A DNA stretch of 64,000 bases from Candidatus Cryptobacteroides sp. (GTDB lineage Bacteria; Bacteroidota; Bacteroidia; Bacteroidales; UBA932). Of the stretch, positions 24,103 through 63,166 are shown in pieces (the first letter of the stretch is position 1; the number at the start of each line of letters is the position of its first letter). Location: assembly GCA_051870255.1 (NCBI GenBank), contig JBJEBR010000064.1, positions 15,642-79,641 of the forward strand, in the 5' to 3' direction. A model generated the notes under the pieces. The model did not search any database, was not told where the DNA came from, and saw only the letters and a list, made by a program, of their open reading frames with translations. The position numbers were made by a program, and so were the translations under genes.

Positions 24103-26313
24103 CTACTCGACGGATTTCACGCAGCGGACGGAATAGCCAGGATAACTGTCTCCATCAATTGTTCTTACCACAGCTTCATTCTTCTTATATGACGTATTCT
24201 CTCCGGTGATATTATAGGCAGTAAAATCCATATATGAATAATTTCGGTAGCCTTCGTAGTATTGATCTTCAGTAGTATCTGAGGCCCAATATTGTCCACT
24301 TGCAGAATCTGAATCATAGCGGCTCAATGCCGCATTATTCATATTCTTGAAATACTCTTCATCATTAAAATATGCGCAGGTAATTGATCCCGCAACGCAA
24401 AATTCAAGCGCTGCACCCGTCTGCTCATCCCACAAATCCCACACTGCTGCCTTTCCTGATGAGGTCTTGCCTTCGAAACTTGCCACCCCGTGCAACTTGT
24501 CCTTCAAACCAACCGTTGACCGGCACCCATAAGAAGAAATCAATTTTGAAAGAGCTTTCCACTCGGCAGTTGTTGGGACACGCCATCCTTCCGGGCAAGG
24601 ATTGCCCATTCCCAAATATGGAGAATCATCAGTTTCAGGCCAGTTGAAATCAACGGTAGGCGAATCTGTTTCAGGATCATCGTATTTGAACCAGTTGTTG
24701 CTTGCTGCATAATAAGTATTATCATCAACAGCTTTTATAGCTCCGGCATCATCATACTCAGAATAAGCGAATTTGGTGGTATTGTCTTCATAATAAGGAT
24801 ATTGCCCTGCACGGCGGCCCCACTGGTAATATTTGCCGAACGGATGATCGAGGTCGAACCCGAGGTTGCAAGGATACCACAGCAGTCCTGCCATCTCAAC
24901 CGGGTCTCCAGTCCAATCACCGATGACAACCTCGCCGTCACCATCGCTCTGAAGAATCGAAATCGATGAACCAAGTACCGATGTCCCCTCGGAAGTCACA
25001 TCTATACCAATTGTTCCCTCAATCTTGATGGTGCGCGAATGATTTTCCTTGTGTACAGCATAGCATTTGAACACATTCCATCCTCTTGAATCAATGGTAA
25101 TATTTTCCCAATCGTAATAAACGCTCATCAAATTCGGAAAAGAACTGTAATCAAAAGACACATCATTCCCTGCATTGGTCCTGATATAGAACTCCGTCAC
25201 CCCGGCAGTCCTCGGAAGCTCCAGATAACCGACAGGGTCTCCGTCAGAAGTCATCGCCAACTCGTATTCATATGGAGTAAATACGGCGTCTGCCATCGAT
25301 ATCGTCAGGGTGGAAAGCTTGTTCTTCTCGAACTTTATGCCTCCCTCCCTTGCCGTAATCTGTCTTGAAACGCATCCGGACTCATTCTGGAGGCTTATTG
25401 TAAGGGGTTGTCCCTCTGCAATCTCTATCGGCTGGGTGCAGAACCACAAATCGAATGTCCCGTCCACGACTTCACCTGGAAGGGCGGCAGACTTCACTTC
25501 CTTCTCCGCCTCCCCGGATGTGTAATTCAGCACGACATAATTCTGGTTTAATTTGTCATCCCCACCGAATTCCTTCCCAAGCACATTGATGTAATATATT
25601 CCTGCCATCGTGCATCCTTCGGGAGCCGTGATGACCGCCTTGGTGATATTTGTCATCGCTGCCGGAATGCCGGTAAGGGTTATCTTGCCGTGGGTGACCA
25701 GACGGTCGAACACCATAGGGATTTCCATACCAGAGGTCACTTCGGTATATTCCTGCTGGGATATTCCGAGCATTACATCCGCGTTCGGGTCATAGCTGGT
25801 GGCTGACGGGTATTGTCCGCTGTAATCAGGCCTTGTCCCGACGAATATCAGCCAGTCCCATATACTGTAATTCCCGAGTCCGCAGGAGGCCGATGCCGGA
25901 TAGACTGAATGGAAACGGTATTTCCCCTCGCCTGACGGGAAAGTGATACCATATTCAGCATTTTCGGTCAACGAGAACTTTGCAGTCTTTCCGTCAGCGG
26001 ACACTACTGCCTCGTTTGATTGCAGGATGCCGTTCAAAGCGCGTTTTGGAACCTGCACATTCTCGTCATACCTTTCTCCCTCTGTCTCGGCACTGTTGGA
26101 CATCGCCACCATCATATATTCTCCGGACGCGCTCCAGAGTATGGCGTCCGATACCGGGTCATAATAGGTCTTGGTGTCCGATGCCGTCGCAGGCTTTTCT
26201 CCGGTAAAGTACAATGTAATTCTTTCTCCGGCAGATTCATGGTCCGGGATTATCGTCATTTCGCAGGCGGCGGACATTAGCAGGGCCGCAAGCATCAATA
26301 TTTCCTTTTTCAT
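24103..26313 (-). CDS. Lipoprotein with type V pilin/fimbrillin-like N-terminus and C-terminal FISUMP (Fibrobacter succinogenes major paralogous) domain
   Basis: Lipobox SAAC; TKT...LW pilin-type start, FDRLVTHGKITL; C-terminal GKYYQWGR, NPCPEGWRVPT..EW, GQYWAS, GYSVRCVK. Confidence 0.78.
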   Translation of the reverse strand: MKKEILMLAALLMSAACEMTIIPDHESAGERITLYFTGEKPATASDTKTYYDPVSDAILWSASGEYMMVAMSNSAETEGERYDENVQVPKRALNGILQSNEAVVSADGKTAKFSLTENAEYGITFPSGEGKYRFHSVYPASASCGLGNYSIWDWLIFVGTRPDYSGQYPSATSYDPNADVMLGISQQEYTEVTSGMEIPMVFDRLVTHGKITLTGIPAAMTNITKAVITAPEGCTMAGIYYINVLGKEFGGDDKLNQNYVVLNYTSGEAEKEVKSAALPGEVVDGTFDLWFCTQPIEIAEGQPLTISLQNESGCVSRQITAREGGIKFEKNKLSTLTISMADAVFTPYEYELAMTSDGDPVGYLELPRTAGVTEFYIRTNAGNDVSFDYSSFPNLMSVYYDWENITIDSRGWNVFKCYAVHKENHSRTIKIEGTIGIDVTSEGTSVLGSSISILQSDGDGEVVIGDWTGDPVEMAGLLWYPCNLGFDLDHPFGKYYQWGRRAGQYPYYEDNTTKFAYSEYDDAGAIKAVDDNTYYAASNNWFKYDDPETDSPTVDFNWPETDDSPYLGMGNPCPEGWRVPTTAEWKALSKLISSYGCRSTVGLKDKLHGVASFEGKTSSGKAAVWDLWDEQTGAALEFCVAGSITCAYFNDEEYFKNMNNAALSRYDSDSASGQYWASDTTEDQYYEGYRNYSYMDFTAYNITGENTSYKKNEAVVRTIDGDSYPGYSVRCVKSVE

Positions 26314-26408
26314 ACTGTCAAAATTTTTTTACAATTTTTTGAGAGGATGATAGCCGTTCGCTATCGTTCACTCTCACGATGAAAACCATTAGATATCGCC
26401 CTTGGGCG
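26314..26408 (-). repeat. Conserved structured 5' leader, copy 1
   Basis: Near-identical to 60003-60105 (see findings). Confidence 0.85.
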
Positions 26409-26442
26409 CATCCTGGTCACTACGCTTTCACAGTCCGGCAAA

Positions 26443-26625
26443 TCAATATGAACCGTTGTCAATCGATCCATAGCCGTTGTTGGCACTGTCAAGGTCGCCG
26501 TCAATGAAACCAGCTTCACCAACGGAAAATCCGAAAGAGCTTTCACAAAGCACGCTTGCCGGAATGATGTCAACTTGCAGTATTTGCGGAGCTGCGTAAT
26601 GTCTTATGTCTGTCATGTCTTTCAT
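26443..26625 (-). CDS. Small protein (60 aa) with YxxP...LCxS leader-like N-terminus
   Basis: MKDMTDIRHYAAPQILQVDIIPASVLCESSFGFSVGEAGFIDGDLDSANNGYGSIDNGSY; co-oriented between the AraC and FISUMP genes. I recall this motif type in many small Bacteroidales ORFs. Confidence 0.6.
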   Translation of the reverse strand: MKDMTDIRHYAAPQILQVDIIPASVLCESSFGFSVGEAGFIDGDLDSANNGYGSIDNGSY

Positions 26626-26739
26626 GGCGCAATTGTTTATATTTCCGGGCTTGAAGATAAAAAGAAAATGATGTCCCCCGTTTTGATTAAGGAACATCAT
26701 CTTTTGTTTAAAGAACAAATCCGGCATTCAGGATGGGTT

Positions 26740-28416
26740 TCAGGCATTCCTGAACTGCACGGGAGTGCAACCTACGGTCTTTTTGAAAAGGGTACTGAAA
26801 TAGGCATGGTCACTGAACCCGCATCTTTGGGCGACCTCCCATACAGGGAGAGAAGTACCGCGAAGCAGTTCCTTGGCCCTGGATATCCTGATGGCAAGGA
26901 TGAAATCCGTGGTGGTGCATCCGGCTGAGGCTCTGACCTTGCGGTTGAGATGGGCTCTTGAGACGCACATCCGGGATGCAATGAGTTCGTAGTCCACATT
27001 GCCGGTCGGTATGACTTCAAGGGCTACCTCGGTAAGGCGGCGGAGAAAATCATTGTCTGAATCCTGCTTCTCATCGGAATTGGTGTCCGGTTTCTGGTTG
27101 CTTGAGGAAGATTCTTCCAGTTCTGCAATGCGCGCCATGGCCTTGGCCAATGATTTTCTTGTATTCTTCATCCGTCTCAATACGATGAACAAGGATATGG
27201 AAACAATCAATCCGACGAGGATTCCAGCCATAGTCATCCATCTGCGGACTTTCCTGTCATGCTCCATTTTTTCCTGCAGCAGGTCGTTGCGGTACAATGC
27301 GTGATATTCGTTCAGCCCGCGATTCATCTCGCTGTTGTAGAGGCTGTCACGGATTTCGGTGTATCGCATCATGTGAGCTGCGGCTCCGGACGGGTCGGTC
27401 GGCATAAGGGATTTGGCCAGCCCGTAGTGTGAGCGGCTCATGTTGTAGGAGTCGCCTTTCGATTCGAAAAAGCGCAAAGCCTGCCTGAAATATCCGGCTG
27501 CGGCTGCCGGGTCGCCTTTCTCCAGGAGGAGTTCGCCCATCTGATTGGAGGCGATGGCCAGAGACTGGATATTGCCGTATTTCTCAAGCACCGGCATCGC
27601 TTCCAAGAGCCACTTTTCCGCTTGGGATTCGTTGCCCAATGACTTTGCAGCCGAGGCCATCTGGACGAGTCTCACGGCAGCCTTGTCCCTCTGGCCGAGG
27701 GCGGTGCTGACATCGTAGGCCCGTTTTGCATATTCGAGGCTTTTTTCATCCTGGCCCATGGCGTGGTATATCTCGGATGCCATTCCGAGGCGCACCGAGA
27801 GCATGACGGAGTCGCGTTCCTGTTCGCAGATTCCGATGGCTTCAAGTATGTATTGTTCACCTTGAGCGGGCTGCCGTGAGGCAAGGCTGATTCCGGCTAT
27901 GGTGTTGAGTGCGTAAGCCATACGCTCTTTGTCCTCAAGTTTCCTTGCCAGACTGAGGGACCTTTTGGAGTATTCCAAGGCTTTGACAAAGTCGGACTGG
28001 CGGAAATATGCTATGGATATCAGATTGGTGCAATCCGCCTCGAGAACAGGGGAATCCACCTTGCAGTCAAGCAGTTCCATTGCCTTGATGGCGTAGCCGA
28101 GGGATGTCGTGTAGTCCTGACGGTCGTAATACCATTCTCCTGCCCAATACATTGTCAGGGCCATCATACTGTCCCGGGGGCATTTGTCGGGAATTATTAT
28201 TCTGCCTTCGGTAAAGCCTTCATTGTCGAGGATATCCAGGATTTTTTGGGATATGCTTTTTGCTTCGGAAGCATTGCAGGTCTGCAACCGGGACATGAGA
28301 GAGTCCACGATTGGAGCAGTGGAGGCGGCCCCGTCCGCAATGGCTGGCAGGGCAAGGAGTGGCAGGGCTATGATGATTGCTGCTATATACAGTTTGTGGG
28401 CTATTCTCATAGGCAT
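26740..28416 (-). CDS. Membrane-anchored TPR-repeat AraC-family regulator
   Basis: Signal-like N-terminus, multiple TPR-like helices, TM segment WMTMAGILVGLIVSISLFIVL, C-terminal IASRMCVSRAHLNRKV...VAQRCGFSDHAYFSTLFKK. Confidence 0.9.
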   Translation of the reverse strand: MPMRIAHKLYIAAIIIALPLLALPAIADGAASTAPIVDSLMSRLQTCNASEAKSISQKILDILDNEGFTEGRIIIPDKCPRDSMMALTMYWAGEWYYDRQDYTTSLGYAIKAMELLDCKVDSPVLEADCTNLISIAYFRQSDFVKALEYSKRSLSLARKLEDKERMAYALNTIAGISLASRQPAQGEQYILEAIGICEQERDSVMLSVRLGMASEIYHAMGQDEKSLEYAKRAYDVSTALGQRDKAAVRLVQMASAAKSLGNESQAEKWLLEAMPVLEKYGNIQSLAIASNQMGELLLEKGDPAAAAGYFRQALRFFESKGDSYNMSRSHYGLAKSLMPTDPSGAAAHMMRYTEIRDSLYNSEMNRGLNEYHALYRNDLLQEKMEHDRKVRRWMTMAGILVGLIVSISLFIVLRRMKNTRKSLAKAMARIAELEESSSSNQKPDTNSDEKQDSDNDFLRRLTEVALEVIPTGNVDYELIASRMCVSRAHLNRKVRASAGCTTTDFILAIRISRAKELLRGTSLPVWEVAQRCGFSDHAYFSTLFKKTVGCTPVQFRNA

Positions 28417-58820: not shown

Positions 58821-60002
58821 TTATTCATACATTGGAGAACCATCCTCGTATGTAATATCTTCCAGACGGTTCACCACCATCTGGATACTTCCCTGATACA
58901 TACAGAGGACACCTGTGATATTGACTTTTTTCTTTCCTTCAAGAACATCATCAGGAATCCTGACATCAGCGAACTTGCTGAAGCCGCTAGTGCGAAGCTG
59001 AATGACCGTATTTCCCATCTTAAAGTAATGACTGACACTCTGCGCCGCGGCATTCTTGATGAGAAGTTCCTTGTATGTCATCAATGCGCCGTTTTCTTTT
59101 CGGCAATCCTTGAACATTCCGGTCTCGGAAACGGTATTTGTGATAGGGCCGAACTTCGTTGCACCACTGCCAATCTCCGCATGATCCCAATAACCTGCAT
59201 TCAAATGTTCTATGATATTGGTCTTCGACATCGCCCAGGTAAATACTTTCCAATTTCCTTTGTTGGAAATGACAGCTCCATTGTTGTCTGAGGACAGGAA
59301 CAAACGATTTTCAGGATCCGTACTTTCATGAGGACGATTTGAATCAGGGTACAGGAGCACGAATACCTGATCGGTATATGTCAGTCCCTTCAAAGTGACC
59401 AGCCTGCCGACATTTTTGTTGGTAGCCTGATTGTCAGCCTTGCCGGGCAACTGTGATTCCGGAACAACAACAGGCTCAACAGGATCACCCATTTCCCCCT
59501 GAAAAACATGAAGATCTATCATCAGCGGAGACTCAAGATAAGAAGTCTCATACTTTCCAGACGTATCTTCTGCTCCTATCTGAACCATTCCCTGACCGCC
59601 ATAAGAACCATCCTTATAGCCATACATTCCAAGCCACAAGTCATTGCACTTTATATAGACTGTCTGGCCTTCATGATAGTCGCTGTAGAGGCTGTTGCGC
59701 CCTATTTTAATCTCAATTCCAGCGGTCTCGTCCTGGAGGTAGAAACTCTTGTAGAAGTTGCCAGGCTGGTCAGTGCTTATGACCTTTCCAGCTATGACAT
59801 AACTGCCTGTCATTTTGTGCTGATTGCCATTGCTATAGGTCTTGCACAAATCCTGAATAGTTATGTTAGGTGTCATATAGACAGGTTCAAACTCCTCCGG
59901 CTTACTTCCCGAACCAAGGCCGAAAACCGGTCCCCACTCATCCTTTGGATTGCAACCAATCAGGATAGCAGCGGTCAATATAGCAAAATATATCTTTTTC
60001 AT
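58821..60002 (-). CDS. DUF5689-like OB-fold lipoprotein
   Basis: Lipobox LIGC (start 60002), IAGKVISTDQPGNFYKSFYLQDETAGI, GRLVTLKGL, TSGFSKFA, NITGVL. Confidence 0.72.
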   Translation of the reverse strand: MKKIYFAILTAAILIGCNPKDEWGPVFGLGSGSKPEEFEPVYMTPNITIQDLCKTYSNGNQHKMTGSYVIAGKVISTDQPGNFYKSFYLQDETAGIEIKIGRNSLYSDYHEGQTVYIKCNDLWLGMYGYKDGSYGGQGMVQIGAEDTSGKYETSYLESPLMIDLHVFQGEMGDPVEPVVVPESQLPGKADNQATNKNVGRLVTLKGLTYTDQVFVLLYPDSNRPHESTDPENRLFLSSDNNGAVISNKGNWKVFTWAMSKTNIIEHLNAGYWDHAEIGSGATKFGPITNTVSETGMFKDCRKENGALMTYKELLIKNAAAQSVSHYFKMGNTVIQLRTSGFSKFADVRIPDDVLEGKKKVNITGVLCMYQGSIQMVVNRLEDITYEDGSPMYE

Positions 60003-60105
60003 ACTATCAAAAATTTTTACATTTATAAAAATTTTGTGAGAGTATGATAGCCGTTCGCTATCGCTCACTCTCACGATGAAAATCATTTGATATCGCCCTT
60101 GGGCG
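60003..60105 (-). repeat. Conserved structured 5' leader, copy 2
   Basis: Near-identical to 26314-26408. Confidence 0.85.
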
Positions 60106-60145
60106 AAAATATATCAAAGATTTTCATGTTCGGTTTCATTATGTC

Positions 60146-63100
60146 TTAGAATCTGAAATAAAGGTTCAACATATAATTGATACCGGCCATGTAGAAGTAT
60201 TTGCTCTGGAAACGGTAATAAACATCCTTGCTGCTGCTGTTCTGCAGACGTGTCTGCTCATAGCCTCCGGTCTTGACACCGCGGTTGTTGGTAATGTTGT
60301 TGACCTGAAGCGAGAAACCGATCTGGTTGTTCTTTACATACCAACTCTTGCCTACGCTTGCGTTAAGAAGGAAAACGGGTTTGAACTCCTCCTGATCCGT
60401 CATATAATAGAAATGAGCAGAACCTCCCTTGTAAACATCCTCGTTGTATATGAGGTCTCCATATTCGTCAAAGCAACCTTTGCAGGCAAATTCAGTACGA
60501 TACAGAGGGTTCATGTCGAGATAGCTCTTCGCATAGCACTGAGCATTCAGTTCGAAGAACCAATAATTGATATTGTATTTAAGACCGAGCTGGGCAGCTA
60601 TCTGAGGAGTCGAAGGAACATAATGTTTCTTGTAGCCCGTCACGATCATGTTGCCGTCACCATCCCTGTCGAACTGGGTGATACCGGAAGCATCCTGATA
60701 TGTCGCATACAAAGGTACCTTGCTCCAGTAAGGAACGGTACTCTGCCTTATGACCTCCGCACTGTTGTCAATGGTCTGCACCATGTAAGGGTTGCTCGTG
60801 TATGTGTATTCACCAGCACTGAGGACACCCTCAAGCGACAATCCTGTCACAGGGAGAGGAACACTGAAACCGAGTTCAACACCGATATGCTGCTGATCTA
60901 TACCGGTCATTGCAAAGTTCGTGAATGAGTTCTGTGAGTCATCATAGAAGCTCATCACGTCACTCTGATTCTTAATCTTGGTGTAGAAGGCAGTAACACG
61001 GACGTTGTAGCCCTTGTTGCTGTACTGGTAGTTCAAATCAGCTGAGTATGTGAACTTGTTCTTCAGGTTGGAGATGATGCTGTTGCGAGTTCTCGGTGAA
61101 ATGAAGGCTTCGTTGAAAGTCGGAGCGTCAGAGAATACGCCCAGATTGGCATAAACACGATGACCACCCTTGAAAGAGCGGGAAGCATACACTTTTGCCG
61201 AACCAACCATGAATTGTTTCACCTGAGATTTCCCTTTGGACGTTACGGCATTGCCGTCAGGATCAAACACCGGAGTAAGCTGCTGTGAAGCCGGAAGCTT
61301 GGAATTGAGGACGGCGATTTCCTCCTCGGTTCCGGCAAAAAGGCCCTTACGCATCATTCCTTCACGCCAGAATGATTCATAGCCGATATTTCCGCTAACC
61401 TTGGCCTCCCAATTGTCCTTCTCCAGAGAATAGGCAGCCCAGACATTGGCCTTGACCACATTCGCAAAATAGTCATAACCATATTTCCCTCCCTTGGTAA
61501 TCTTTTCGGCAGTAAGGCCGTTGGCTATGTAATAATCCAAATCATTCTGAATCTTGGCCTCGTTCACTGCGAAATCACGCTCTGCAAAAGAGTCGACATT
61601 GAGGAAATATTCTCCTCCCAGAAGATCAGCGATCTTCTTGTAATATTCGGTTCGGTTATATTTAAGGTTCACTCCGCCGCTGAGAACCATGTTCTCGTTG
61701 ATCCTCCATTTGATATTCTCCACCAGATTGAGGTCATTCTGGTCAACATGACGCTGTTCCTGAGCATATTTACTGCGCCCGTCAACAGTGTTGTAGTTGA
61801 CATTGTACAGGCGATCCCAGTTGAGATGCTGGTACATTAAATAATCATTGCTGCGGGTTGTCCAGGCCTCATACATCAACTTACCCTTATCGCTGAGGTC
61901 ATCATATGAATAGTCATATCTGGCACTTTGGTCATCTCCCTCGGTTGAATTCGCAAAACTGTACGAAGGCAGATTGCGATAATAGTCAGGACGGGGGTCG
62001 GCTGCATCATACCAGTCAAGAGCCGTATAACCATTGAAACCTGTCCTCCACAAGAAAACGGTATTGGACTCGAAATCCGCTGACGGAGCATACTTGTATT
62101 TCAGAACCGTTACTGGCTCAAATGTCTTGCGGACACGGCTGTTGCGGACCTTACCGTTCTGATAGCCCCAATTGCTGTTGTACATGTTGTCCCCCATAAG
62201 GTCATAAACCTCCTGGGTAGATGCATTCTGGGCACCTCTCTCTCCCGGAGTGGCAAAATGCATCAGAGCCAGAGAATGCCCGTCACCGAATTTTTTCTCG
62301 GCTCCGAGATAATATGCAAAACTACGGTAATAGACTCCCTTTATCCAGTCGTTTCCTCCAAGACGCGCAGATGCACTGACAGCATAGCTCCATCCATTGT
62401 CGAGAGGACCACTGCCGTAGGTGAGCATCAGACGGAGACGGTACATTGCGCTGTTGGTCAGGACACTCGCACGAAGGCCACGGCGGACAGCCGAAGGAGT
62501 TCCATAGATGTTGGTGCTTCCATTATATCCGCCTGAGCCGTAATCTGAAGACTCGAGACCGGTGGAAGTATCCTTTGATCTTGTAACCTCATTGAGACCC
62601 GTCCACAAACTGTATGGAGAATATCCGGTAATGGCGTCATTCAGACGAACCCCGCTGAAATAGACATCCTGAGTTTCACTGTTGTATCCCCTGTTCTTGA
62701 ACCTGACATTGCTGAAGCCATAACCTGCAATGCTGTTGTAAGGGTCATTGTTGGAGAACAGGATTGTAGGATTATCATTGTAGCCGCTGTCATCCATGTC
62801 AAACTCCGTGAAATTGCTTGCATCAACGGATTCCACCTGCACATCCGGAGTCATTGTCATGAATATCATGTCTTTGACAAATCCGTTGTCCACAGTCACG
62901 TTGACACGAAGGTCCTTGTAGCCGTCTGCGGTAATCGTCATCTGGTACATTCCGTCTGCCAGAGCCTCAACAAGGAAACGTCCGTCACTTGCCGAACTTG
63001 AAGTGGCCACGGTCTGGCCGTCTTTCTGGATTATAAGGTTTGCTCCCGGGATAGGAAGCCTTCCGGCCCTGCTTACAACTGAGCCGGTAACTCCGCCTGT

Positions 63101-63166
63101 CGGTGTCTGTGCATAAAGAGCGGCAGAAACCACAATAAGCGAGAGTATGGAAACTAGTTTTTTCAT
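60146..63166 (-). CDS. TonB-dependent receptor-like outer-membrane protein with carboxypeptidase-regulatory-like N-domain
   Basis: Signal peptide, N-terminal beta-sandwich, FKNRGYN plug, many aromatic strands, C-terminal YMLNLYFRF. Confidence 0.8.
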   Translation of the reverse strand: MKKLVSILSLIVVSAALYAQTPTGGVTGSVVSRAGRLPIPGANLIIQKDGQTVATSSSASDGRFLVEALADGMYQMTITADGYKDLRVNVTVDNGFVKDMIFMTMTPDVQVESVDASNFTEFDMDDSGYNDNPTILFSNNDPYNSIAGYGFSNVRFKNRGYNSETQDVYFSGVRLNDAITGYSPYSLWTGLNEVTRSKDTSTGLESSDYGSGGYNGSTNIYGTPSAVRRGLRASVLTNSAMYRLRLMLTYGSGPLDNGWSYAVSASARLGGNDWIKGVYYRSFAYYLGAEKKFGDGHSLALMHFATPGERGAQNASTQEVYDLMGDNMYNSNWGYQNGKVRNSRVRKTFEPVTVLKYKYAPSADFESNTVFLWRTGFNGYTALDWYDAADPRPDYYRNLPSYSFANSTEGDDQSARYDYSYDDLSDKGKLMYEAWTTRSNDYLMYQHLNWDRLYNVNYNTVDGRSKYAQEQRHVDQNDLNLVENIKWRINENMVLSGGVNLKYNRTEYYKKIADLLGGEYFLNVDSFAERDFAVNEAKIQNDLDYYIANGLTAEKITKGGKYGYDYFANVVKANVWAAYSLEKDNWEAKVSGNIGYESFWREGMMRKGLFAGTEEEIAVLNSKLPASQQLTPVFDPDGNAVTSKGKSQVKQFMVGSAKVYASRSFKGGHRVYANLGVFSDAPTFNEAFISPRTRNSIISNLKNKFTYSADLNYQYSNKGYNVRVTAFYTKIKNQSDVMSFYDDSQNSFTNFAMTGIDQQHIGVELGFSVPLPVTGLSLEGVLSAGEYTYTSNPYMVQTIDNSAEVIRQSTVPYWSKVPLYATYQDASGITQFDRDGDGNMIVTGYKKHYVPSTPQIAAQLGLKYNINYWFFELNAQCYAKSYLDMNPLYRTEFACKGCFDEYGDLIYNEDVYKGGSAHFYYMTDQEEFKPVFLLNASVGKSWYVKNNQIGFSLQVNNITNNRGVKTGGYEQTRLQNSSSKDVYYRFQSKYFYMAGINYMLNLYFRF

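Follow-up and report, generated by a model that had tools for sequence, protein, structure and literature searches.

Among the described repeats, REP2 of Neisseria and IR-A/IR-B of Borrelia are the closest analogues of the element treated here. They are 120–154 bp long, carry internal stem-loops and no terminal inverted repeats, occur in dozens of copies, and both their origin and the way they multiply are open (PMC3184786). We analysed a stretch of 64,000 nt from a Candidatus Cryptobacteroides genome (GCA_051870255.1, contig JBJEBR010000064.1, positions 15,642 to 79,641; hereafter the window), in which a sequence-only reading had seen a leader of about 100 nt duplicated in front of two unrelated lipoprotein genes. 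Our results make it probable that both leaders belong to one family of non-autonomous mobile repeats, 143–151 bp long, carried by gut Bacteroidales (Candidatus Cryptobacteroides and relatives) and inserted at ATGAAA starts. Start-codon-fused repeats without terminal inverted repeats are a known but poorly understood kind of element. The Bacteroidales family is apparently undescribed, and our literature search found no described Bacteroidales start-codon repeat. The likeness to REP2 and IR-A/IR-B is one of architecture only. Like REP2, the repeat lies directly upstream of unrelated open reading frames (ORFs), runs into the start codon and appears to supply the ribosome-binding region together with the ATG. 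REP2, however, is reported to bring a promoter and a Shine-Dalgarno (SD)-type ribosome-binding site, whereas our element is without an exact Bacteroidetes promoter box and its A-rich initiation region is SD-less. It further differs in its phylum, in a second 5' ATGAAA that opens an upstream ORF (uORF), in its empty orthologous sites and in its evident spread across species.

Other small repeats share some of these features. The IS200/IS605-derived PATEs also lack terminal inverted repeats, have hairpins near their ends and a strand-specific structure, and insert in a single orientation beside a 4–6-nt target; our element differs from them by ATGAA(A) on both sides, no Y1 HUH transposase was found in the two element-rich genomes searched, and no autonomous relative was found. 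Rickettsia palindromic elements are small palindromic repeats inside ORFs, which are translated with the frame or the gene preserved, whereas our element precedes the start codon and only rare deletion derivatives are translated as N-terminal extensions. REP/BIME sequences are GC-rich palindromes of 20–40 nt, found mostly after genes and in both orientations, and are associated with RAYT; the element, in contrast, is 143–151 nt long with AT-rich ends, stands in sense before an ATG and comes with no Y1/RAYT match. It resembles the miniature inverted-repeat transposable elements (MITEs), such as Correia/NEMIS, ERIC, RUP and BrickBuilt of Porphyromonas gingivalis (PMC4596501), in being small, multi-copy, non-coding and spread within and between genomes; classical MITEs of this group are co-transcribed with their neighbours and can alter expression. 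A MITE with its own initiation region was one of three options of the sequence-only reading and is the one that fits the evidence. The element is small (below about 300 bp), non-coding, multi-copy and interspersed. What did not hold is the inverted-repeat part of the name. In MITEs the ends are terminal inverted repeats, the target duplications are short (TA, for example) and both orientations occur between genes, while the element has internal repeats only, one orientation and ATGAA(A). Putative mobile promoters are likewise similar upstream regions before non-homologous genes, some of them common to several species (PMC3575422). They are defined by similarity, whereas the element has defined ends, a structure and an insertion site, and promoter activity is not evident.

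Two copies of the element in the window

Both copies are on the minus strand, at the coordinates first given, and run directly into the start codon of the gene behind them. In the window a core pattern of 31 nt has exactly two matches, with none expected from shuffles, and over 76 nt the two cores share 93% identity. The unit exceeds the 100 nt or so originally proposed. Copy 2 (60003–60139, minus strand) is a full-length copy of 137 nt, which begins with its own 5' ATGAAA, ends in ...TTTTTGATAGT and lies between the stop of a TonB-dependent receptor gene and the start of a DUF5689 gene. It spans positions 1–151 of the nhmmer model and scores 173.7 bits with the covariance model. A copy elsewhere in the genome (C61:99585–99727) is 99% identical to it over 145 nt, so the unit reaches further 5' than had been recognised.

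In copy 1 the well-conserved part (26314–26411, minus strand; nhmmer model positions 32–151, E 7e-18) contains the tip and 3' arm of the first hairpin (H1), the second hairpin (H2), a shortened third hairpin (H3) and TTTTGACAGT. The intact 5' arm of H1 is lost or eroded. An eroded 5' remnant follows at 26412–26431 (minus strand; GTGAAAGCGTAGTGACCAGG..., the counterpart of ATGAAACCGAACATGA...), and in the alignment by eye GTGAAAGCGTAGTGA at about 26431 corresponds to an eroded ATGAAACCGAACATGA and marks the start of the remnant. The covariance model aligns the whole element to 26308–26443 with 74.8 bits. Given this alignment and the remnant, copy 1 is an older, decaying, 5'-eroded insertion. 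Copy 2 is a young and intact one.

Empty sites at orthologous loci

Direct evidence for insertion comes from loci without the element. Copy 2 separates a TonB-dependent receptor-like gene (60146–63166, minus strand), which lies upstream in the same operon and outside the element, from a gene for a DUF5689 lipoprotein of 393 aa (58821–60002, minus strand; Pfam PF18942, E 1.8e-41). The receptor has a CarboxypepD_reg N-terminal domain and a C-terminus that is conserved in the orthologous loci. This gene pair is conserved in the genus, and in 17 congeners without the element its junction reads ...TTCAGATTCTAA (TTCTAA), 0–8 nt, ATGAAAAAG. The DUF5689 orthologs begin at the same ATGAAAAAG as the window gene. 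The window junction reads TAAGACATA-ATGAAA-[element]-ATGAAA-AAG, or in a longer view TTCTAAGACATA-ATGAAA-[CCGAAC...GATAGT]-ATGAAA-AAGATA. The intergenic gap of 143 nt is almost wholly element, with ATGAAA at both ends, and the DUF5689 gene has been displaced 137 nt downstream by copy 2. The 5' ATGAAA of copy 2 (60134–60139, minus strand), which now opens a uORF, is either the former DUF5689 start or a copy of the target hexamer that belongs to the element. The 3' tail TGATAGT together with the present DUF5689 start ATGAAA occupies 59997–60009 (minus strand).

Copy 1 stands directly before the ATG of a gene for a Fib_succ_major (FISUMP) lipoprotein of 736 aa (24103–26313, minus strand; Pfam PF09603). 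In the sole ortholog found for this locus (genome G263), an AraC/TPR regulator gene is followed by a conserved small ORF, 20 nt and ATGAAA, and there is no element. On these sequence comparisons, insertion at ATGAA(A) in one orientation, with ATGAAA on both sides, can be counted as shown.

Position, orientation and downstream genes

Further members of the family were collected by an exact scan with 24 nt of the 5' end over one genome per prokaryotic species. The scan returned at least 116 stretches in at least 19 metagenome-assembled genome (MAG) assemblies; among the matches listed, the MAGs are nearly all labelled Candidatus Cryptobacteroides or uncultured Bacteroidales. From the fetched loci nhmmer gave 85 unique full-length copies, 82 of which end in ATG. 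An ORF of at least 60 aa is opened by 72 of the 85 (85%), compared with 30% of all ATGAAA sites in the same DNA. Copies flush with an ATG are all in sense orientation, and no copy among the 85 is antisense to its abutting ATG. A plain REP sequence, with many copies in random orientation to genes, had been named as the finding that would speak against the first interpretation. Copies are indeed many, yet all are sense and flush with ATG, and the objection does not apply. The genes behind them are unrelated and encode lipoproteins, secreted proteins, SusD-like proteins, FabD, FabF, MurG, acetate kinase (AckA), FolD and PurE. Upstream, a co-directional ORF ends within 150 nt of 47 of the 85 copies and within 30 nt of 25, so many copies sit in tight operon junctions.

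This position may follow from the target itself. ATGAAA is the commonest start hexamer of the source genome (272 of 1339 long ORFs), and insertions at ATGAAA inside genes would be lost to selection; the survivors would thus sit at start codons in sense orientation. The lipoprotein bias of the downstream genes in the source genome can be put down to the same ATGAAA (Met-Lys) starts. Head-to-tail tandem copies with one common ATGAAA are found in a genome of another genus (G099 C8:44985–45280, loci L041/L043) and at L035 and L057, so the end of the element can itself be targeted.

Ends and architecture of the element

From 5' to 3' the repeat consists of ATGAAA, H1, H2, the AT-rich H3 and TTTGATAGT, followed by the gene's own ATGAAA. 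Its 5' end is ATGAAACCGAAC and its last 16 nt are AAAAATTTTTGATAGT, with ATGAA(A) always next. The termini, 5' ATGAAACCGAAC... and 3' ...TTTTGATAGT, are non-complementary and form no terminal inverted repeats; all inverted repeats are internal (H1, H2 and H3). The nhmmer copies divide into two subfamilies, types A (151 nt) and B (143 nt), and both window copies belong to type B. Beyond the 5' end, whose conservation is biased by the scan, conservation is highest in the 16 nt at the 3' end and in the unpaired tail. ATGAA(A) flanks every copy on both sides, and the target is already present at the empty sites. Two copies have ATGAAT or ATGAAG as 3' hexamer beside a 5' ATGAAA, so the 5' hexamer may belong to the element. 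A TTTCAT within the 3' arm of H1 is complementary to ATGAAA.

The minimum-free-energy (MFE) fold of a 146-nt sequence places the three hairpins of copy 2 as follows, all on the minus strand. H1 (60076–60127; fold positions 16–67) pairs CATGAAAATCTTTGATAT with ATATCAAATGATTTTCATC. The CGCCC-AA-GGGCG hairpin described at first exists, as the apical CGCC-CAAG-GGCG stem, and is merely the tip of this long H1. H2 (60036–60074) has an outer stem GTGAGAG/CTCTCAC and an inner stem GATAGC-GAACG-GCTATC. H3 (60010–60035) contains only A and T and pairs AAAATTTTTAT with (A)TAAAAATTTT, and the 3' tail is unpaired. The two copies had been thought to form the same hairpins; in copy 1, however, H3 is shortened and H1 has no intact 5' arm.

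The sense RNA of copy 2 folds with −49 kcal/mol (z −7.5) and the antisense strand nearly as well (z −6.9), while copy 1 folds weakly (z −2.6). In an alignment of 49 copies, 88.9% of the cells in the three-hairpin structure are paired, against 43–48% when the partners are slid by 1–3 columns; the value is 89.9% for H1 and 98.3% for the inner stem of H2. Two-sided changes are observed in H1, in its tip and in H3, where two pairs flip from AU to UA between subfamilies A and B. Divergent copies retain all three hairpins by compensatory change: both arms of H1 are altered together in the variants of G025 and G352, and in the G352 copy (L214) each hairpin has changed in this way. At the third pair of the inner stem of H2, most copies have T-A and several have T-G, while the C55 copy of the source genome and the G352 copy have C-G. 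Among one-sided changes in well-aligned helices, G-U (15 pairs, 92 cells) exceeds A-C (8 pairs, 10 cells). This points to the sense strand as the one that folds, be it RNA or DNA of the top strand. Since the high-frequency G-U cases trace to few subfamily-defining events, the evidence for a sense-strand fold is suggestive only.

A candidate initiation region and an upstream ORF

In the last 16 nt of the element an A-run spans −12 to −16 (−11 to −15 in type A), and position −3 is an A. Ribosome profiling and reporters in Flavobacterium johnsoniae have found that A at −3, −6, −12 and −13 and low secondary structure favour SD-less initiation (PMC6847099). The upstream profile of the source genome itself has an A peak at −14 to −11. 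By base composition and position, the 3' end of the element matches this Bacteroidetes signature, and the tail with the A-run of the H3 3' arm would act as a replacement translation-initiation region. The portable translation-initiation module of the sequence-only reading gains plausibility here, as the anatomy fits such a role.

As read from the sequence, the uORF of copy 2 (60083–60139, minus strand) runs from the displaced ATGAAA into the 3' arm of H1 and has 18 codons plus stop (MKPNMKIFDIFSPKGDIK). Type A uORFs have 22 codons (MKPNMKIFEISSSKLIYQRFSS); the stop is in H1 or H2. Past residue 8 the peptide shows no conservation from one subfamily to the other.

We propose the following course. 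An inserted element would form part of the host transcript. The original ATGAAA, now displaced but still in its native upstream context, would open the short uORF. The hairpins would hold the body of the element, including internal AUGs, clear of the new start, while the last ~13 nt would stay single-stranded, and the downstream gene would be translated from the element's own A/U-rich, SD-less initiation region, so that such insertions are tolerated. An insertion that regenerates ATGAAA before the coding sequence would leave the protein intact.

A separate feature is observed in copy 2 at 60084–60086 (minus strand), where the uORF stop overlaps an ATG (ATGA) that is in frame with DUF5689 through 28 stop-free codons. 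The ORF from this ATG has 421 aa (58821–60086) and could give a coupled, N-terminally extended DUF5689 product. The overlap is without counterpart in copy 1 and may be a coincidence.

Further copies, short forms and derivatives

The source genome (2.55 Mb, 69 contigs, 51% GC) was searched as a whole by short-word BLAST. In place of the duplication first described, it holds about 6 long or partial copies, 1 internally deleted copy (C39) and about 12 short forms of 33 nt. Besides the window copies and the C61 copy, these include C24:37946–38085 (83% identity), C55:16806–16901, which consists of H2, H3 and tail only, and a copy cut by a contig end (C58:1–53).

The short form, ATGAAACCGAACATGAAAATCTTTGA(T/C)AGT-ATG, adjoins about 12 further genes, mostly for lipoproteins or SusD-like proteins. 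If the stretch that separates the internal direct repeats AAAATCTTTGA and AAAATTTTTGA is taken out of the long element, these 33 nt (ATGAAACCGAACATGAAAATCTTTGATAGT-ATG) are what is left, and the short form has probably arisen as a deletion derivative between these two repeats. It is in frame (30 nt), recurs in other species and is present only in genomes that have the long form. We considered whether the 33-nt motif could be a genus-wide promoter or leader interrupted by the long form. We rejected this because the motif equals the long element without the inter-repeat segment, is absent from 199 of 201 family genomes and occurs solely where the long element does. We likewise rejected a reading of the motif as a conserved N-terminal peptide (MKPNMKIFDS), as the substitutions have no synonymous-site bias and frame-breaking variants exist.

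Several single observations concern individual copies. In deletion derivatives at L074 (1853–1793, minus strand) and L143 (696–656, minus strand) the first 45–60 nt of the element are fused in frame to a lipoprotein signal peptide, e.g. MKPNMKIFDIFSPKGDIKGFFRALLTALVIIALIAC..., and the repeat there encodes an N-terminal extension. The C61 copy, likewise of full length, has no real gene behind it (C61:99727–99800): its terminal ATG opens 44 codons through a strong hairpin CAGCGATACTCAGCCAAAATC...GATTTTGGCTGAGTATCGC, and the next signal-peptide gene is ~130 nt beyond. The element seems to have landed here on a non-genic ATGAAA within a divergent promoter region. The divergent copy of G352 (C8:1649–1777, L214) lies just after a canonical Bacteroidetes −7 box TACCTTTG, has ACGAAA instead of ATGAAA behind it and opens no ORF, and is possibly an old copy in a non-coding transcript. 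MAG contigs often stop inside the element, e.g. at L059, L070, L087, L117 and L119 and in the C58 copy.

Near copy 1, an unannotated ORF of 60 aa (26443–26625, minus strand) lies between the AraC/TPR regulator gene and the element and has no Pfam match. A counterpart at the same position in G263 (MKTKTHYISPDLCLC...GLVDNGEY*) and gene calls on independent Logan contigs make it probably a real small gene.

Distribution and spread

The element is very patchily distributed. Of 60 relatives searched by BLAST with copy 2, just 2 congeners have a strong match, with 100% identity in G024 and 91%, with a different H1, in G025. The 24-mer, with up to 3 mismatches, is found in 2 of 201 family genomes, namely 13 copies in the source genome and 38 in G099. 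The covariance model, built from 49 diverse copies, has strong matches in 3 of 301 family genomes. In G024 the copy identical to copy 2 precedes fabD. FabD there is 68% identical to FabD of the source genome, whose own fabD is without the element. A near-identical repeat in divergent hosts at non-orthologous sites argues for horizontal transfer and recent activity; the patchy distribution and the near-identity across divergent species together indicate that the repeat has probably spread horizontally.

Alternative explanations

A regulatory RNA was the leading idea of the sequence-only reading. A vertically inherited cis-regulatory RNA (a riboswitch, an attenuator or a protein- or sRNA-binding leader) that co-regulates surface lipoprotein genes would account for the stable fold, some covariation, the fixed position before ATG and the many lipoprotein genes behind copies in the source genome. 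The element is, however, missing at the orthologous DUF5689 and FISUMP loci and is found in just 3 of 301 family genomes. Elsewhere cytoplasmic housekeeping genes stand behind the copies, and copies are 99–100% identical across divergent species. A known Rfam family had been allowed for in the sequence-only reading; the whole window has no Rfam match at gathering thresholds, and permissive filters gave chance-level E-values of 0.5–4 at 26200–26800. The undescribed regulatory leader first proposed is thereby largely refuted, since the orthologous loci are empty, the distribution is patchy and unrelated genes stand behind near-identical copies, and we consider it very improbable. Even less credible, to the point of being negligible, is an assembly or binning artefact in which a chimeric repeat was collapsed into the MAG. 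Many copies do lie at contig ends, but breaks at a multi-copy repeat are expected. The gene-element junctions of both window copies recur in independent Logan assemblies from other samples, whose contigs break within the 3' end of copy 2 and run through copy 1, and shared junctions of this kind are not an artefact of one MAG assembly.

Two further explanations are compatible with mobility. The element could be purely selfish DNA without an RNA role, its hairpins being kept for recognition as single-stranded or cruciform DNA by the mobilisation machinery and its fit to initiation being the minimum for survival. Young near-identical copies, tandem arrays, frequent internal deletions and in-frame fusions resemble the dynamics of a repeat more than a function under maintenance, copy 1 is decaying, and the tolerance of G-T could equally reflect single-stranded DNA of the top strand. 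Yet the conserved 3' 16 nt and the unpaired tail coincide with initiation determinants. This possibility differs from our preferred explanation in emphasis only, and we hold it to be a serious though less likely one. The other explanation differs only in the effect of the element, which would be a portable promoter or a terminator-plus-promoter cassette: read-through would end at H2 with AAAATTTTT, and a new, near-leaderless transcript would begin in the AT-rich 3' part, as has been described for REP2 and for Correia elements. The Bacteroidetes −7 box has the consensus TAnnTTTG, and AATCTTTG and AATTTTTG, the latter 5 nt before the ATG, are each one base off it. REP2 of Neisseria has been reported with promoter, ribosome-binding site and ATG (PMC3184786). 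Against this, an exact TAnnTTTG and a −33 TTTG are absent from the sequences of both subfamilies, and four A residues part the T-run from H2. Scans for terminators and sigma-70 promoters, which do not cover Bacteroidetes promoters, gave no sense-strand match in either copy; two 9-of-12 sigma-70 matches on the antisense (plus) strand of copy 1 are not clearly above shuffles. A start from the 3' box would be leaderless, whereas most transcripts of F. johnsoniae are reported as leadered (PMC6847099). The G024 copy has a native TAcTTTTG box upstream of it and would there be transcribed as a leader. We regard a portable promoter as unlikely.

Several points nevertheless count against a mobile repeat that replaces the initiation region of its host genes. 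The exact 24-mer scan skews the collected copies toward an invariant 5' end, and the flanking ATGAA(A) can be either a true target-site duplication or the target together with an end that belongs to the element. Even in the nearest genomes that have an empty site, the adjacent protein is just 42–54% identical. No presence/absence polymorphism between close strains was found, and exact-protein look-ups in other samples found the element there too. We infer co-transcription, translation of the uORF and use of the initiation region from sequence features. Bacteroidetes normally avoid AUGs near start codons (PMC6847099), so with its extra AUGs the element may lower expression at some insertions. 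Searches of phage collections, plasmid collections and viral contigs gave no match. No autonomous parent was found, and among the partial copies no pair of 5' and 3' ends surrounds an ORF. PF01797 (Y1 HUH; IS200/IS605, RAYT) is absent from the source genome and G099, the two richest genomes available, and from G024.

Candidates for the mobilising machinery were also considered. Partial copies were inspected as a possible autonomous parent and proved to be cut by contig ends, internally deleted or fused in frame. An IS200/IS605 or RAYT transposase as mobiliser is not supported, with PF01797 missing in the three genomes just named; matches to it do occur in genomes without the element. MAGs often lack insertion sequence elements.

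Significance

The family is a clear case of the start-codon-fused repeat class, whose origin has been an open question since REP2, and adds clean empty sites and evidence of horizontal spread. For genome annotation the element has practical consequences, as it breaks MAG assemblies at gene starts and yields spurious N-terminal extensions and uORFs; masking is advised in Candidatus Cryptobacteroides and related genomes. Bacteroidia do not use SD pairing, and the determinants of their start sites are still being worked out. The element stands on dozens of unrelated starts with the coding sequence intact, from which continued expression is inferred, and so provides a natural experiment on a minimal portable initiation region. 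It may likewise be useful as a part in expression engineering for Bacteroides.

A more far-reaching version, which we offer as speculation and hold to be rather improbable, describes the element as a start-codon-homing unit with a self-specified target, guided by the TTTCAT of H1 in a manner comparable to IS200/IS605 or a bridge RNA. It would at the same time provide a context-insulated 5' end for the gene, with a ribosome-capturing uORF, AUG-sequestering hairpins and an open SD-less start, much like the synthetic 'bicistronic design' insulator, and would spread horizontally. If this is true, the translation of dozens of genes per genome would have been rewired among gut Bacteroidales.

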